Positions 47,120-55,732 of a DNA stretch of 64,000 nucleotides are shown in pieces. Each line of letters opens with the position of its first letter. The first letter of the stretch is position 1. Source of the DNA: Eremomyces bilateralis CBS 781.70 (Eukaryota); NCBI GenBank assembly GCA_010015585.1, contig ML975150.1; one strand, 5' to 3'. A program made the position numbers and the translations under genes. The notes below the pieces were generated by a model that saw only the letters and a program-made list of their open reading frames with translations, ran no database searches and was not told the DNA's origin.

Positions 47120-48388
47120 CCAAGCCAAAAGTCTGCGCACAGACCCCTTACTTTGACAATCAATAACTTTACCAAAATGAGGTCTTTTGGCACAAAAATA
47201 AGTGATAATCGAGGGCCTAATAAGGAGCTATCAGTTGCTCAAAGAGCTGGGGTTGTTCAGGCTGCTGAAGATGGGAAACCAAAGACTGAAATCGCGCGCA
47301 ACTTTCGCGTCTCTCGAAGCGCGGTGTATGGGACCCTAGAGAGGTGGGAAGAACACCAAACCACCGTATCTTTACCCCGTAAAGGGAGTCCCCATAAGCT
47401 ATCACGCTCTGGCGAACGGCATATCGTTCAAATCGCGCGTCGATTTCCTGAAATGGAATATGGAGAGCTCCTCGCAGGTATTTCGTACCTCCGCGTTTCT
47501 AGGAAGACTATCTACCGAATCCTTAAGAAATATCACCTTACGAAATGGCGAGCGAAGAAGGGACCTTACCTAAAACCCTACCACGTAAAAGGCCGCCTCC
47601 GATTTGCCCACGAATTCCTTGAATTCGACTTCTTCAGGACCCACTCTACAGACGAGTGCTCGTATGAGAAGGGGACAGGCGGTAAGCAGGTATGGGTATG
47701 GCGCCTGTACCACGAAGCGTATGAGTCGCGAATGGTAGAGCCAAAGACGTCAGGGAAGGTGATTTCGTAGATGATTTGAGGCTTAATTTCGCGTGATGGG
47801 CGATCAGATCTGGTGATTATGGACCGCGACGAAACCTCCGCAAGACAGGGCTATTCCGCAAAATCCTACATCGCTGCATTAGAGGAGAGACTCCTCTCTA
47901 CGTACGAACCCGGAAATGTTGTTATCCAGGATAATGTAAAGATCTATACGGCTAAAATTACCTAAGAATGGCTGGAGACGCACGGTATCTGGGTCACCGA
48001 TTGGCCGGCCAATTCCCCAGATATTAACCCTATCGAGCATATATGGCATCTATTGAAAACCAAGGTCCTAGAGCTCCACCCTGAATTAAAGCCGATAGGC
48101 ACCTCAGAGGAGGCACGGGAGGCTATGAATGCGGCGTTAGAGGAGGTATAGTGGGCGATCCCTTAGGAGACGATCCGAGAGCTGATCGACTCAATTCCGC
48201 GACGTCTACAGGCGGTAATCAAGGCAAAAGGGTGGCATACGAAATATTAGATATTTCCCAATTAAGAAATCAAAAAAGTAGACTGAATTTGCATTTGTAT
48301 GTGTTTTGCAGCGTATCTAAAGATACGGTGTATAGCGATTAGATTTGGTGATTTTCGGGGGTGTGTGCAGACATTTGTCTACTTAGTG
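47120..48388 (+). mobile_element. Tc1/mariner (Tc1-type DDE) transposon relic with RIP-type stops
   Basis: ORF 47177-48250 with HTH, TDECS, QDN, SPDINPIEHIW, GWHTKY; internal TAG/TGA/TAA; imperfect TIRs at 47125-47147 and 48357-48388 followed by TA. Confidence 0.9.
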
Positions 48389-48533
48389 TACTCTATGATG
48401 TTGGTCACTAGAGTAACTATACGGGATAATTAACTTACCCTAGGAGTTCCGCGACGATCAACACAAATATCAAGGCTTGTAAACATTCCTAAGTAAGAGG
48501 CGACTAACCTTCACTTACAAGCCGTGATAGTAA

Positions 48534-49496
48534 CTATTGCTTGAAAAAATCATTCATGTCAACGTCTTTATCGAACACTCCCACAGCTGCAGAAGAGTTT
48601 CTTTGTGTTGTTACATCCCTGATCCGCAGGTTGACCTTTCCGACAACACTCTCAGGTAATCCTACCAAAGCTCTCGAATCGTCGGACGTTATGATGTTGG
48701 AAATATCATGGCCTGTCCGTTTGGAGCGCACTTGTGAGAAAAGAGCAGCAGAAGCCACCTGATCAGCCTCGAAGAGGCGTGACTGTTCTTCAACTTCCTG
48801 AATGGCTAGGGTTCGCTGTGCACCACCATCTTCTTCGTCGTCTAGCCCTTCCTGTAGCCCTTGCACACGCTTTTGTGCGTCACCTTGCTGCTTCTTGGTA
48901 AGATCTATATGCTCTTGGATCTTGGCCTCGAGAGCCTGCAACTGTGCCTTCAGTTTCTTGCGATCAGTCTCCGACGTTTGTTCGGAGCGGAGTTGAACGA
49001 TTCTTTCTAGAGAGTCAGCATACATCCGCGGAAGTGATATAAGATAGCTGACCTACAATTGGGTACTTGTGACGGCAAAATGGACCGTAGTCTGGCAAGA
49101 CTGGACCTGCATTCTGAACGTCCGGAATTTTTCTCTATTCCACACGCCGACTGAAAGGCGATCTCTAAGGGAGAGTTGTGTGCCGCCGGAATGTTTCGTC
49201 CATCGCTTTAAATTGTCCGTAAATTTGGCGCATGCCTGGCCGCAGTTGTTCACGGCTTCGACGACACCGGTCTTCTCCAGATCCACTTTGGCTGCGGTAT
49301 ACATTGCTGCGTCTGAAATGATGAGATCCTCCAGGGCGGCCAACGGGCGCTGCACACCCTCTAAGTTTGAAGCAATATCTTGTACTACATCTTTAGCCTC
49401 AGCAAGATTGTCAATGAAGTTATGAAGTTGGACGATGCTGGAGATAGCAAACGTCGTAATGCCTAGAGTGCTTGCAGTAATACTAAGAGGATCCAT
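48534..49496 (-). CDS. HeLo-like domain effector with C-terminal two-repeat HET-s-like amyloid motif
   Basis: MDPLSITASTLGITTFAISSI N-terminal helix; inferred intron 49003-49056; C-terminal HDISNIITSDDSRALVG and LRIRDVTTQRNSSAAVG followed by an aromatic FF tail. Confidence 0.8.
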
Positions 49497-49911
49497 GGGT
49501 TCTGGTTCGAGGACGTGAGAATTAATGAATGGAACCCGTATGAAATCAGAAGAATCGTAATAGAAGAACGGAGATGTTTCTCTGATAGATACCTACGGAT
49601 GGATGGATTTTCGTAAGCATAAAATGGACGAGGCTGTTGAGAAAGGCGAACGGGCTGTATTTCTGTTGGGACTGAAGGCTGCTGTTCAGATGAGGTGATG
49701 CTGCACGGCTCCAACAAATCATTGTGCATGGCTGAACGCTGCCGTTAAGCGAGCCAGACGAAGCATTTAATTAGAACCGCTTCGAATTGGGAATAACAGT
49801 TTTGTTGCTGGACATCCCATGCTGTCTTGATGCATCACAAATGATAATAGTGCTGATCCTCAAAGCACTAGTTAGCAAAGGCTTGTGTTATTATCGCCAC
49901 TGTGAAGCCGT

Positions 49912-52900
49912 ATGGCGGGCAGCACTCAACACATCAGCAGCGTGTCCATCGACAACCACTCCCAGGCTGCAGTGGGTACCTTCCAAGCACCAGTGTATAT
50001 AGGGAACAAAGAAAGCGAGTATTATAGCTGTACACTAGATGACGAGGCTAATCGGTCGTCTAGATCTGAACGATGCGCTCAATTCCCTCCCTATTGCTAA
50101 GGACGCGGCGTTCGACACCTATTACCGACATGAGCCGACCTGCCTTCCCAATACCCGCGTCGATCTCCTCAAAGATATATACAACTGGGCAGATGGAGAC
50201 AATTCGCCGACCATCTTCTGGCTGAGCGGTTTGGCCGGCACCGGCAAGTCCACAATCGCGCGAACGCTGGCTGCTAAGTACTTGGACACCGGCGGTATTG
50301 CAGCTAGCTTCTTCTTCTCAAGAAATGGTGGAGAAGGTGGATATTTACGTCATGGTGAAAGATTCGTTACAAGCATTGCAGTGCAGCTGGCCAGCAATGT
50401 ACCGCCTGCAAAACAGGCCATATGCGGTGCTATTTTTGCGCAGAGTAACATCGCCAGCCGGGCTCTCCGCGAACAATGGCGGCATCTCATTCATAGGCCA
50501 CTATCGGAGCTACCAGACAGAAACTGCCAGTCTCGATATATCCTTGTCGTTGACGCGCTTGATGAGTGCGAGAACGAGAACGACATCCAGACCATTTTAC
50601 AACTATTAGCGGAGACTCGGTCCTTAGAGACGGTCCAGCTTCGAGTGTTCCTAACCAGCCGGCGTGAGATTCCGATCCGGAACAGCTTCGTCCAGATCCC
50701 CGATGATGTGTACCAGGATGCTATCCTCCACGAAATATCGTCGTCGATTGTCGATCATGATATCCGAATTTTCTTGCGGCACGAGCTCGAACAAATTGCT
50801 CGTACGCACGGTCTCCCTGTTAGTTGGCCTGGCGACCAAGTCGTTGATCAACTAGTTGGCAGTTCATGTGGGCTATTCATCTGGGCGGCAACTACATGTC
50901 TCTTTATCAACGAAGCCAGAATGTATGCTCCAGATCGCCTATCTATAATCCTCAAGGCCGACTCTGCGGATGACTCGGCAGACGGGTTGTCTTCAGATAG
51001 CTCCACGACAGATGATAAGAATGACGATCCCGTAATGGCTCCACAACAGCACCTAGACAAACTCTACATCACAGTTCTCCGGAGTTCTGTCCAGAAATAC
51101 AAGAAGCCGGAAAGAAAGAAATGTCGCAAGCTACTAGGAACAACCATGGAGACCATTGCTGTCCTATCTTCACCTCTATCTACCCACTCATTAAGCAAAC
51201 TGCTTGACACTACGCAAGAAGGAATACACCAAATACTGAACGATCTTCATTCGATCGTGGACGTTCCAAAGAATTCGACTCATCCACTGCGTTTACATCA
51301 TCCATCATTCCGCGACTTCATCCTTAACCCAAAGCGATGTGAGGATTTAAAGTTTAGAATTGACAATAAGCAAGTGCATCGGACCCTTGCCATGCAATGC
51401 ATACAGCTTATGTCCAAAACTTTTAAACAGGACGACATATGCTGTATAGGCCATCCAGGTACGCTTATAACCCAAGTTAAACACAGCCAAATAGAACAAC
51501 ATCTTCCTCCTGAGATTCAATATGCTTGCCTCCACTGGATCCAACATCTCCAGAGGGGTGGGTCACAGCTTAAAGACACCGACCAAGTACATACGTTTTT
51601 GCAGAAGAATCTCCTTCGTTGGCTTGAGGCTCTCGGATGGATGAAGAATGTTTCTAAGGGGATTCATGCCATTGTTTCTTTGGAGTCTATGGCAGCGGTA
51701 AGCCAGGGTCAAATAAGATACGAATACTTGGCTAACTTACGCTTAGTCGCATAAATGTCTACGACTATTCGAGTTTGTTCATGATATAAAGCGATTCGTT
51801 TTATATAACCGGTCAGCGATCGAGCAAGCTCCTCTCCAGACATATTGTTCTGCACTTATATTTGCGCCAGAGGCGAGTATTGTACGGATACAGTTTAAGG
51901 GCAGCATGCCCCAATGGATGCGAAGATTACCAAAGGTAGATTATGATTGGAATGCGTTGCTGCAGACGCTCGAGGGCCATTCGGCGGGGGTCCACGCCGT
52001 GGCCTTCTCGCCGGACGGCAAGACGCTGGCGTCGGCATCGAACGACAAGACGGTCAAACTGTGGAACGCCGTGTCGGGCGCACTGCTGCAGACGCTCGAG
52101 GGCCATTCGACCGGGGCGATGGCCATGGCTTTCTCACCGGACGGCAAGACGCTGGCGTCGGCATCGTGGAACGGGATGGTCAAGCTGTGGGACGCCAGGT
52201 CGGGCGCTCTGCAGCAGACGCTCGAAAGCCACTCGAGCGGAGTCATGGCCATAGCCTTCTCGCAAGACGGCAAGACGCTGGCGTCGGCATACGGGGACGG
52301 GATGGCCAAGCTATGGGACGCCGAGTCGGGTGTGCTGCAGCAGACGCTCGAGCGCTATTCAATCCCAGACATAGCTCTGGTCTTCTCATGGGACAGTAAG
52401 ACGCTAGCGTCAGCATCATGGGACGGGACGGTTAAGCTATGGGACGCCAGGTCAGGCGCGTTGCTGCAGACGCTCGAGGACCATTCGAGCCAGGTTAATA
52501 CCGTGGCCTTCTCGCGAGACGGCAAGACGCTGGCGTCGGCATATGGGGACGGGACGATCAAGCTGTGGGACGCCGGGTTGGGTACGCTGCAGCAGACGAT
52601 CGAGGGCCATTCGAGCGGAGTCCCGGCTATAGACTTCTCGCGGAACGGCAAGACGCTGGCGTCGGCATCGGCGGATATGACTATCAAGCTGTGGGACGCC
52701 AGGTCGGGGGCGCTGCAGCAGACGCTCGAGGGCCATTCAAGCCTGGTCATGGCCGTGACCTTCTCACGGGACAGTAAGACGCTGGCGTCGGCATCGGTGG
52801 ATAGGACGATCAAGCTATGGGACACTGGGTCAGGCACACTGCAGCAGACGCTCAAGCGCCATTCGAGCCCGGTTAATACCGTGGCCTTCTCGCGAGACGG

Positions 52901-53897
52901 CAAGACGCTGGTGTCGGCATACGGGAACGGGACGATCAAGCTGTGGGACGCCGGGTCGGGCGTCGTGCAGCAGACGCTCGAGTGCTATTCGAGCCCGGTT
53001 AATACCGTGGCCTTCTCGCGGGACGGCAAGATGCTGGCGTCGGCATACGGGAACGGGACGATCAAGCTGTGGGACGCCGGGTCGGGCGCCGTGCAGCAGA
53101 CGCTCGAGTGCTATTCGAGCCCGGTTAATACCGTGGCCTTCTCGCGAGACGGCAAGACGCTGGTGTCGGCATACGGGAACGGGACGATCAAGCTATGGGA
53201 CGCCGGGTCAGGCGCGCTGCAGCAGACGCTCCAGGGCCATTCGAGCGTAGTTAAGGTTATAGCCTTCTCGCCGGACGGCAAGACGCTGGCATCGGCATCG
53301 AACGACAAGACGGTCAAACTGTGGAACACCGGGTCGGGCGTGCTGCTGCAGACGCTCGAGGGCCATTCGTTCGGGGTCGTGGCCGTGGCTTTCTCACCGG
53401 ACGGCAAGACGCTGGCGTCGGCACCGTGGGACAAGACGATCAAGCTATGGGACGTTGGATCGGGCGTGCTACAATTGATACTCGAGGGCCATTCCCACCG
53501 GGTTAACGCCGTGGTCTTCTCGCGGGACAGCAAGACGCTGGCGTCTGCATCGGCCGACAGGACGGTTAAACTGTGGGACGTCGGATCGGGCGCAGTGCTA
53601 CAGACACACGATGTTGGGAATATCTGCTACGATCTCTCTTTCTCCGATAACGGCACTTCTATCCAGACGGACCGTGGATCCTGGCCTATTTTATCGCCTT
53701 TCTCTGATGGTACAGGTGTGACCAGTCCACAATATCTATTTTCTATCTTTGTTCATGACCAATGGGTAAGTAGCCATACCGAGCGGATCCTTTGGCTTCC
53801 TTCCGAGTATCGGCCAAGCGCGATTGCTGTTTATGAGGGTATTGTTGCTTTCGGTTATATATCTGGAAGAGTTATAACCATGGAACTTGCTTTGTAG
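49912..53897 (+). CDS. NACHT-WD40 NLR (NWD/HET-E-like) with short N-terminal amyloid-like motif
   Basis: CLPNTRVDLL, P-loop GLAGTGKST, Walker B VVDALDEC, HHPSFRDF, APLQTYCSALIFAP, 13 WD40 repeats; inferred introns 50015-50063 and 51698-51746. Confidence 0.92.
51957..53605 (+). repeat. Tandem 126-nt (42-aa) WD40 repeats, 13 copies, high internal conservation
   Basis: Recurrent gcagacgctcgag...ttctc...acggcaagacgctggcgtcggcat...aagctgtgggac with 126-nt period. Confidence 0.93.
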
Positions 53898-54161
53898 TGT
53901 TCACCCAAGTTTTCTTGACCTCCTACCTACCTACCTCCTTTGTAAATAGTGTCTGTACCGCGTGAATAGCACGAGTATCAACAGCCAGGGAGTAATATTT
54001 GATTAGGAACCCAAAGGCTTTGAATGTCAGCAATGATGATTTTGAGTTGCTTGATTTGAGGGCTGAGTCTGTGGGAGGTGCTTACGAAGAAGTACATTGG
54101 TCGATTCTGTGAGCCAACTGTCCGAAGAGCATCTTGATTCTTTACAAAACACGCGCTAGCC

Positions 54162-55732
54162 AGAGTATCCAAATGGCTGGTGAGATTTTACATTCCGTTT
54201 TTGAGATTTCACATACGGCTGGTGAGATGTCTCCCTCCGTATTTGAGATTTCTCCCACGCGCTAGTAATTGTAGAAATTAATCGCTCAACTGGACCTAGT
54301 GCGCAATTTCCTTTATTTTCGCCTAAGGGACAACTTCAATTAGTTATCAATGTTCAATCTATTCCTTCTCTCACAGACCTCAGCATGGAGGATATCATCA
54401 TGGAGGATATCACCCCTCCTCCAGATGGTCTTCACGCGTCTTATGAAGAAGCCTACAATGCTCTCAAAATTCATGGTATGCAGCATGGTTACGGCTTCGT
54501 TCTCAAACGGAGCAAACCTTACGGTTCTGATATAAAGACGCGATATTACTATCAATGTGATCGATCCGGAAACTATCAGTCAAGAGCAAGGATTCTAAGC
54601 ACAAGTACACGCACAATAGGGTGTAATTTTAGGCTTGTCATATTCAAAAACAAAAATGACGACCAGTGGAAGCTAGAGGTGCTACACGAGTATCACAACC
54701 ACCCCCGATCACTTAACCCTAGTGCGCATAATGTCTATCGCAGGCGTACATCAGCACAGAAAGACATAATTGAATCAATGACACATGCCGGGGTACGGCC
54801 GATGCAGATAATGGCTGCTATTCAAAAGGAGGACTCGGAAACGCTAGTCTCTGCCACCGATATCCGCAGCGAGAGGAAGGCAATTAGAGAAAAGCACTTA
54901 GATGGGAGGAGTCCGATTGAGACATTACTAGATGACTTATCTACGCCGGAATGGGTCTTTTCTGTTAAGAAGGACGCGGATAATCACGTACAAGGTCTCT
55001 TCTTTGCCCACCAGAAGCAGATCGAGCTACTGCTTGCGAATCCCGATATCCTATTAATAGACTGTACGTACCGAACCAAGTACAAGCTCCCGCTGTTGCA
55101 CATACTCGGCTGTACCAATCTATAGACCTTCTTCTCTGCCGGGTTCTGCTTCCTCCACAGCGAGAAAGAAGTAGATTACCATTGGGCAATCTCAAACTTC
55201 CTCCTCAAGACAGGGACACCGCAGCCACGCGTGTATATTAGCGATCAAGAGGATGCGGCGAAACTAGCAGCTCGCACTCTGTTTCCAAGTGTTCTATAAC
55301 TCCTGTGCGTATGGCATATCAACAAGAATGTGCAGACAAAGGCTCAAAAGACCTGGCGAGACGCTGATGGCGTGACAAAAGAGGAGAAGGGGAGAATCGC
55401 TGAGAAACGGGCTCAATTCATGAAACGTTGGAGTCAAGTATGCTCCCCGCTAATGGCCTCTTATAAGTCTTTTATAGAACTAACTAGAGCAGCTTGTCTA
55501 CGCAAAAGGACTACTTATATGTAAGCTGAAGTGGGACGAGTTACTCAAAGACTATGCTGACCAGCAAGAGCTTTGCCAATACTTACGCAAAATCAATGGC
55601 ATACACGCACTAAGTGGGCAGCTGCTTGGACGTCTCGGCATCGACATTACAATACAATTACCACTTCTCCTGTTGAAGGAATGCACAAGGTTTTAAAAGA
55701 CTACCTTATGACTTCAACAGGCGACTTCCTAT
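54162..55732 (+). mobile_element. Mutator-like (MULE) transposon, 3'-truncated, RIP-type stops
   Basis: FAR1-like YYQCDRSG...GCNFRL..HNHP; DCTYRTKYKLPLL; ISDQE; LCVWHINKN; TTSPVEGMH; in-frame TAG/TAA; 42-bp tandem unit at 54175-54257. Confidence 0.88.

Follow-up and report, generated by a model that had tools for sequence, protein, structure and literature searches.

A divergent HeLo-like/NACHT-WD40 gene pair of Eremomyces bilateralis as a probable amyloid-signalling module of the HRAM2 subclass

A 64,000-nt stretch of contig ML975150.1 of Eremomyces bilateralis CBS 781.70 (assembly GCA_010015585.1; hereafter the window) carries two divergent genes, which together span 48534..53897 from stop to stop in an open reading frame (ORF) scan. 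The minus strand encodes a HeLo-like protein (the effector), and the plus strand encodes a NACHT-WD40 nucleotide-binding oligomerization domain-like receptor (NLR). The question raised by this locus is whether a short segment at the N-terminus of the NLR (R0) and two segments at the C-terminus of the effector (R1 and R2) are copies of one amyloid motif through which the receptor would trigger its neighbor. The original prediction, made from the letters of the window, had proposed this. Our analysis indicates that the two genes very probably form an amyloid-signalling module for cell death, of the type built on the HET-s-related amyloid motif (HRAM), and that the subclass is HRAM2. The pair is ordinary, intact, and expressed, and the family of amyloid-signalling pairs to which it belongs was already in print in 2015.

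The three segments were compared with the published HRAM pattern. That pattern features G at position 19 and hydrophobic residues at positions 5, 8, 10 (where T is allowed), 16, and 18; R or K is preferred at position 15, the loop between the repeats has 6-18 residues, and an aromatic-containing tail follows R2 (PMC4518210). HRAM effectors bear a HeLo, HeLo-like, or sesA domain, are shorter than 310 residues, and have two 21-residue repeats in their last 80 residues; R0 motifs found on NLRs carry little charge and much S and H, and charges are anti-correlated between repeats at positions including 4 and 12 (PMC4518210). In the window, positions 5/8/10/16/18/19 read I,I,T,A,V,G in R1, I,V,T,A,V,G in R2, and I,V,I,A,V,G in R0. 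The effector has 302 residues, with R1 at 243-263, a 6-residue loop at 264-269, R2 at 270-290, and aromatics (FF) in the tail. The single R0 of the adjacent NLR has one charged residue of 21, five S, and two H. Opposite charges are found in R1 and R2 at position 4 (D/R) and position 12 (D/R). The gap-free 17-residue alignment of the original prediction was reproduced, with I in column 3, V or I in column 6, S in column 12, A in column 14, and VG in columns 16-17.

Thirty proteins matched effector exon 2 in a protein search. Twenty-eight of these were aligned (alignment A1); two Talaromyces proteins, P0028 and P0029 (the latter a 1383-residue multidomain protein), were left out. Both repeats are kept in 27 of the 28, the exception being P0030, and R1 and R2 cluster by repeat order. 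The family is also present in the catalogue of Daskalov et al. 2015, in which rows 34, 55, 78, 79, 83, 105, and 156 of supplementary file 2 belong to it and are accompanied by the r0 of an adjacent NLR (PMC4518210). The orthologous pairs listed there include those of Capronia epimyces, three Cochliobolus species, and Westerdykella, so the system found in the window is not new. For row 34, the last 80 residues agree with the C-terminus of P0005 of Capronia epimyces as aligned here, and the r0 is SNQDISGVSITDHSRAAVGTF.

Subclass was deduced from position 3 and from the published table. Q at position 3 marks HRAM2, H at position 3 HRAM3, Q18 HRAM4, and Q16 HRAM5 (PMC4518210). Position 3 is Q in 25/27 R1 and 25/27 R2 repeats of the family, and Q is absent from positions 16 and 18. 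Table 1 of the same paper gives one HRAM2 and one HRAM3 entry each for Cochliobolus sativus and Westerdykella ornata (PMC4518210). In the other row of each species (rows 83/84 and 155/156), both repeats carry H at position 3, and the family of the window should therefore be the HRAM2 entry. The window pair would thus belong to HRAM2, on a HeLo-like rather than a HeLo domain, a deduction from rows that are unlabelled by class.

The features of the locus, with coordinates in the window, are as follows.

48534..49002, minus strand: effector exon 2, encoding a coiled-coil/helical linker and the putative prion-forming region; stop codon at 48536-48534; placed by the ORF, the RNA contig ends, and the match to protein P0001.
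48573..48635, minus strand: R2 pseudo-repeat, 21 residues, VNLRIRDVTTQRNSSAAVGVF; P0001 residues 270-290, followed by a 12-residue tail with FF.
48654..48716, minus strand: R1 pseudo-repeat, 21 residues, TGHDISNIITSDDSRALVGLP; P0001 residues 243-263; kept in 27/28 aligned homologues.
49003..49056, minus strand: effector intron, 54 nt, GT..AG; placed by RNA contig ends; across the junction P0001 reads TSTQL followed directly by IVQLRS.
49057..49496, minus strand: effector exon 1, encoding the PF17111 helical domain with a hydrophobic N-terminus; the AlphaFold2 model is helical over residues 8-243.
49497..49911, no strand: intergenic region of 415 bp between the divergent ATGs, presumed to be a shared promoter.
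49912..50014, plus strand: NLR exon 1 with R0; length, 34 codons plus 1 nt; N-terminus of protein P0031; RNA joint 50014>50064.
49921..49983, plus strand: R0 motif, 21 residues, STQHISSVSIDNHSQAAVGTF; P0031 residues 4-24; matched by the motif profile.
50015..50063, plus strand: NLR intron 1, 49 nt, GC..AG, with a branch-like CTAAT; RNA joint "skips 49, GC..AG".
50064..51697, plus strand: NLR exon 2, encoding an NTPase of NACHT type (NPHP3_N/NACHT, about 50177-50662) together with a winged-helix region.
51698..51746, plus strand: NLR intron 2, 49 nt, GT..AG; placed by sequence and an RNA contig joint.
51747..53897, plus strand: NLR exon 3, encoding the WD40 sensor domain; tandem array at 51954-53593; stop codon at 53895-53897.

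The effector ATG lies at 49496-49494 on the minus strand and the NLR ATG at 49912-49914 on the plus strand; the gap of about 415 bp that had been noted between them is thus exact. The effector model equals database protein P0001 (302 residues), and the NLR model equals P0031 (1295 residues), with 100% identity over exon 2 in both cases. The two genes are publicly annotated for Eremomyces bilateralis CBS 781.70, under no name other than hypothetical protein. The N-terminus of P0031 is MAGSTQHISSVSIDNHSQAAVGTFQAPVYIGNKE followed by NLNDAL, so the public annotation already includes R0; the earlier suggestion that the R0 exon might readily escape automated annotation was not borne out. A 46-nt NLR intron 1 with a GT donor at 49993 was considered as a candidate and was overruled by the P0031 sequence and the RNA joint. 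Because intron 1 is the GC-AG intron at 50015-50063, exon 1 additionally encodes APVYIGNKE after R0.

Transcript evidence was taken from one public run (X1, labelled "RNA?") in the form of contigs, with read depth not usable; X1 was treated as transcript-derived because its contigs are devoid of the three introns. X1 contains 81% of the sampled words from 48400-54000. Its contigs have joints at 50014>50064 ("skips 49, GC..AG") and at 51696>51746 (GT..AG after a shift of 1), and loose contig ends at 49002 and 49057 each run on into the sequence beyond the effector intron. The contig of the NLR begins at 49859 or farther upstream. Spliced transcripts thus exist for both genes, and the joining of the R0 exon to the NACHT exon, on which the original prediction depended, is seen in the contigs by way of the 49-nt GC-AG intron. 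An additional back-joint, 53246>51988, falls inside the WD40 array and is probably an assembly effect of the repeats.

The donor of NLR intron 1 was also compared with two metagenome loci, L001 and L003, in which the orthologous intron occurs at the same place with a GT donor: it is GCGAGT in the window and GTGAGT in L001 (878-926, minus strand) and L003 (148-196, minus strand). The GC-AG intron is nevertheless removed in the X1 contig. Its retention would end the frame at 50098-50100 and give a 62-residue peptide containing R0 only. By a bold and rather unlikely reading of the weak GC donor, such a free R0 peptide could tune or trigger the effector.

It could be asked whether the likeness of R0 to the effector repeats is fortuitous, R0 being part of an unrelated low-complexity NLR leader and the HeLo-like protein being triggered otherwise. 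In a six-frame scan of the window, R0 and R2 were reciprocal best 21-mer matches with a BLOSUM62 score of 33 over 21 residues (runner-up scores, 25 for R0 and 30 for R2). The R0-R1 score of 24 was not above chance by itself. A motif profile was constructed from the R1 and R2 repeats of 25 homologues; P0001 and P0002 (same genome) and P0030 (motif-less) were left out. The R0 ORF was the top match to this profile outside the effector among 1995 six-frame ORFs of the window, aligned in register over profile positions 2-19, and its expectation value (E) within the window was a modest 0.042 (next match, 0.38). These pairwise scores and this E-value are what an accidental origin has in its favor; as far as the sequences go, the main weight of the argument against it is carried by the recurrence of R0 in other loci.

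Recurrence was assessed in 20 metagenome loci retrieved in a scan with the effector alignment; in 14 of them, the sequence available upstream of the effector start amounts to 600 nt or more. With the motif profile, five of these 14 were found to contain an R0-like segment a few hundred bases upstream of the effector, on the other strand: L001 (E 0.013), L003 (0.0014), L009 (0.51), L011 (0.00035), and L013 (0.014). Syntenic pairs with conserved motifs, for which the original prediction had proposed to look, thus exist in other fungi, both in these loci and among the published pairs (PMC4518210). The ATG-to-ATG distance is 400 bp in L001 and 310 bp in L003. The partner in these two loci is a close NACHT homologue. 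Its R0 exon shares 77% identity with that of the window, against 56% (L001) and 70% (L003, over the 46 available residues) for the NACHT part. The C-terminus of the effector is cut off in L001 and L003, and complete R0/R1/R2 triplets in the metagenome scan are consequently limited to L011 and L013. A tblastn search of the 20 loci with the first 400 residues of the NLR returned L001 and L003 only; the partners in L011 and L013 required the motif profile for their detection. These two partners are NACHT-ankyrin NLRs with the same kind of R0 (HHQHISGVSTQNHSQAFVG; L011, 976-4243, minus strand; L013, 2745-5978, minus strand). The sensor changes, and the motif remains with the effector.

A chance resemblance is hard to reconcile with the occurrence of the motif on the N-terminus of a divergent neighbor in five independent loci, with the r0 of seven published pairs of the family (PMC4518210), with its persistence when the NLR sensor domain differs, or with an R0 exon in L001 that is better conserved than the NACHT part of the same gene. 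Given the recurrence and the persistence across sensors, the accidental origin of R0 is very unlikely. Co-variation among the repeats was not counted as evidence. By eye, position 17 is A/A (R0/R2) in the window and in Capronia, and F accompanied by F, Y, or V in the Pleosporales pairs, but the comparison comprises about ten related pairs and is confounded by phylogeny.

The N-termini of NLR homologues were inspected as well. Among the 120 listed of 1170 homologues (E <= 1e-20), 47 reach the Walker A motif in their first 140 residues, and among these the N-termini of P0049, P0074, P0066, and P0051 are R0-like by eye. The R1/R2 profile matched these weakly (P0074, E 0.39; P0066, 1.2; P0049, 4.8), and P0051 had no match at E <= 10. 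Other listed NACHT-WD40 homologues, including P0039, P0057, P0088, and P0113, have other short N-terminal motifs in the place of R0; examples are SFGDNNSAFQAGIINGTV, which we take to be PP-like, and NQYRNIRINEGAKAQLGDIYHI, which is HRAM-like. Judged from these N-termini, motif swapping occurs on one NLR scaffold. The genome of E. bilateralis has a second effector, P0002, 87% identical to P0001, and a second NACHT-WD40 NLR, P0049 (1519 residues), with the R0-like N-terminus NNQHISGLSASDHSQLFAG. Both paralogues are known from the protein searches and are apparently not on one contig; with two effectors and a second receptor, several NLRs may feed two effectors.

The domains of the two proteins were assigned with Pfam. 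The effector is HeLo-like, as had been predicted: it matches PF17111 with E 5.5e-18 and 65.6 bits against a cut-off of 27.2. PF17111 is named PigL_N in the release used, and we take it to be the former Helo_like_N family. It is termed "HeLo-like" in PMC9815663. The predicted NACHT-WD40 architecture of the NLR was likewise found, a NACHT-type P-loop NTPase being followed by 13 WD40 repeats as in fungal NLRs of the NWD type. Exon 2 matches PF24883 (NPHP3_N; E 1e-28) and PF25521 (E 1.9e-6), and exon 3 matches PF00400 (WD40; E 3.5e-151) in 13 stretches. The array at 51954-53593 comprises 13.0 copies of a 126-nt unit with 79% matches (Tandem Repeats Finder). High internal similarity of WD40 repeats is typical of NWD-type NLRs, which diversify by repeat shuffling. 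The Walker A motif (G....GK[ST]) is reached already at index 89 of P0031, in agreement with the prediction that the NLR has no N-terminal effector domain.

The name PigL_N, together with the UniRef name of the homologues ("Azaphilone pigments biosynthesis cluster protein"), might point to another role for the small protein, namely that of a PigL-like accessory of a pigment or secondary-metabolite pathway rather than that of a cell-death executioner. The scan of ORFs of at least 150 residues from 37.8 to 63.1 kb revealed neither a polyketide synthase nor any other core gene of biosynthesis; the neighbors were only a 2-hydroxyacid dehydrogenase, a short-chain dehydrogenase, and a DUF3112 protein. 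A pigment role would also leave the double C-terminal HRAM and the paired NLR unexplained, and the published treatment of PF17111 as HeLo-like speaks against it. It is regarded as highly improbable.

Structure prediction was performed with AlphaFold2 on alignment A1 for the whole effector, yielding a mean predicted local distance difference test score (pLDDT) of 83.2 and a predicted template modeling score of 0.74. Helices fall within residues 8-243 of the model and are followed by strands at 245-252, 257-263, 272-279, and 284-290. These four strands are in register and fall on positions 3-10 and 15-21 in both R1 and R2, and the predicted layout is that expected of two stacked rungs. Block-mean pLDDT values across residues 241-290 were 64-82. 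A predicted complex of P0001(236-302) and P0031(1-34) received a score of 0.04 and a mark of 0.34 and weighs neither way. When the A1 profile was compared with the sequences in the PDB, the best match was 6eka_A (E 0.069, 15.6 bits), gap-free over R1-loop-R2. This is a 78-residue chain from Podospora anserina with QxFG and QG sub-motifs; we take 6EKA to be the HELLF(209-277) fibril structure. The two sub-motifs are ascribed to HRAM5 (10.1101/2020.07.06.188508), and from them we identify the chain as the HELLF prion domain.

Several results weigh against the assignment of the pair to a working HRAM module, in addition to the R0-R1 score and the profile E-value given above. At position 15, R1 has R, R2 has S, and R0 has Q, so that the preferred positive charge is present in R1 only; at position 3, where the family consensus is Q, only R0 has Q, while R1 has H and R2 has L. 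Neither PF11558 (HET-s_218-289) nor the HeLo domain was matched by the pair at E <= 1 in Pfam, which means that the pair is not of the canonical HET-s subclass, and PF05729 (NACHT) was matched by the NLR with E 8.7e-6 and 26.1 bits, just below its cut-off of 26.7. The three profile searches proposed originally were therefore positive for Helo_like_N (PF17111) and for a NACHT-type NTPase and negative for HET-s_218-289. PF11558 is matched by 38/155 HRAM proteins (PMC4518210). In nine of the 14 loci with at least 600 nt upstream, the motif profile found nothing comparable to R0, so linkage is common rather than universal. For the whole effector model, Foldseek returned no match in the PDB at E <= 0.001, and the best VIA-align result (Z 9.1) was to generic helical bundles and channels, below the significance level of that tool for helical proteins; these fold-search results contained no HeLo, MLKL, or HET-s entry. 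The literature consulted on HRAMs contained no solved HRAM2 amyloid structure. Finally, the evidence for amyloid formation, templating, and toxicity of the pair is its homology to other systems.

Alternatively, the pair could be a relic, i.e., an HRAM system in which R0 or the effector has decayed and which is kept by linkage without signalling any longer. The H and L at position 3 of R1 and R2, where 25/27 homologues have Q in each repeat, would fit such a history, as would the transposon remnants that flank the locus on both sides and intron 1, whose donor is GC here and GT in L001 and L003. However, neither reading frame is interrupted over its 302 or 1295 codons, both genes are represented in spliced transcript contigs from which the GC intron has been removed, and the core positions 5, 8, 10, 16, 18, and 19 are retained in R0, R1, and R2. 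The R1 of Westerdykella in the published set likewise has H at position 3 (PMC4518210). Decay of the system is accordingly judged to be unlikely, and the reading of the pair as a two-gene amyloid-signalling module is preferred.

The mode of action of such a module can be modeled on nwd2/het-S and hellf/fnt1 of Podospora anserina, by analogy with which amyloid formation, templating, membrane attack, and cell death would be expected. A ligand would be sensed by the NACHT-WD40 NLR through its WD40 propeller. Oligomerization driven by the NACHT domain would then gather the N-terminal R0 segments into a beta-solenoid-like amyloid nucleus, and with this nucleus as template, the R1-loop-R2 region of the adjacent HeLo-like protein, natively unfolded, would adopt the form of a two-rung beta-solenoid. 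Once folded, this region would free the hydrophobic helix at the N-terminus of the HeLo-like domain, and that helix would target the plasma membrane and kill the cell.

The remnants on the two sides of the locus comprise Tc1/mariner-like pieces at 47120-48151 on the plus strand (three ORF fragments; HTH_Tnp_Tc3_2, E 5.5e-13; DDE_3, E 3.4e-7) and a FAR1/ZSWIM ORF, similar to Mutator-like elements, at 54247-55125 on the plus strand (FAR1, E 8.7e-5, which does not reach the Pfam cut-off). A maximum-likelihood tree was built from the 28 effectors. It shows the two E. bilateralis copies as sisters (support 100/99) and groups them with members of Leotiomycetes and Eurotiomycetes, namely Mollisia and three Chaetothyriales (99/99), rather than with the Pleosporales of their own class. 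The tree mixes Dothideomycetes, Eurotiomycetes, Leotiomycetes, and Sordariomycetes, a topology compatible with transfer or with old paralogy. On account of the NACHT-WD40 and NACHT-ankyrin partners, this class-mixing tree, and the flanking remnants, it was considered whether the effector and R0 form a mobile signalling cassette that is rewired to different sensors and perhaps crosses fungal classes; the proposal is a rather unlikely one.

The titles of the literature mentioning Eremomyces bilateralis contained none with amyloid, NLR, or HET-s; this survey did not cover the supplements of PMC9815663, which possibly list the protein. The pair opens no new question: the logic of such systems, the motif family, and orthologous pairs have already been published. 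In the literature consulted, HRAM2 is supported by sequence and co-variance, without a solved fibril structure or an in vivo test. The pair is usable as a test case of whether HRAM2 takes on the solenoid of HET-s and HELLF, of whether it is insulated from other HRAM classes, and of how NLRs with different sensors share one effector.

The known systems related to the window pair include hellp/pnt1 (PP motif) and the sigma-motif systems. The logic is the same, an amyloid motif being placed at the N-terminus of an NLR and at the C-terminus of an effector, but their motifs are single-copy with other signatures (NxGxQxG) and form no 21-residue pseudo-repeats. Several of the listed NLR homologues have N-termini that we take to be PP-like, such as SFGDNNSAFQAGIING. 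The nwd2/het-S system of Podospora anserina (HRAM1) is the paradigm. As in the window pair, a NACHT-WD40 NLR that bears one R0 at its N-terminus lies divergent or adjacent to an effector in which R1-loop-R2 is joined to a helical membrane-targeting domain, likenesses from which the function of the window pair is suggested by homology. The two differ in that the window effector has PF17111 (HeLo-like) rather than HeLo, PF11558 is unmatched, and position 3 is Q/H/L instead of N. The loop of the window effector has 6 residues, and that of HET-s is longer.

The window pair is also like HELLF (hellf/fnt1, HRAM5) in its HeLo-like domain, its two 21-residue repeats, and its adjacent NLR with one repeat in the first 35 residues, and the profile of its family aligns to 6eka_A gap-free over R1-loop-R2 (though at an E of only 0.069). 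For HELLF, prion behavior of the prion-forming domain, cell death with the full-length protein, and membrane relocation have been reported, with fnt1(1-35) used in the co-localization work (10.1101/2020.07.06.188508). The HRAM5 hallmarks QxFG (positions 1-4) and QG (16-18) are absent from the window pair. HELLF and HET-s do not cross-seed (10.1101/2020.07.06.188508), and the specificity of the window pair probably differs from both.

The closest relatives are the catalogued HRAM2 HeLo-like/NLR pairs, e.g. those of Capronia epimyces, Cochliobolus sativus (181401), and Westerdykella ornata (504224), which belong to the same protein family (PMC4518210). E. bilateralis was not seen in the part of this 2015 catalogue that was consulted, which predates the 2020 genome paper mentioning the species. 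The window differs from the catalogued pairs in having H (R1) and L (R2) at position 3 and the GC donor in intron 1. Its effector is 74% identical to P0005 of Capronia and 61% identical to P0020 of Westerdykella, with the same repeat boundaries, the same 6-residue ESVVGK-type loop, and a similar R0 (SNQDISGVSITDHSRAAVGTF in the catalogue, STQHISSVSIDNHSQAAVGTF in the window).

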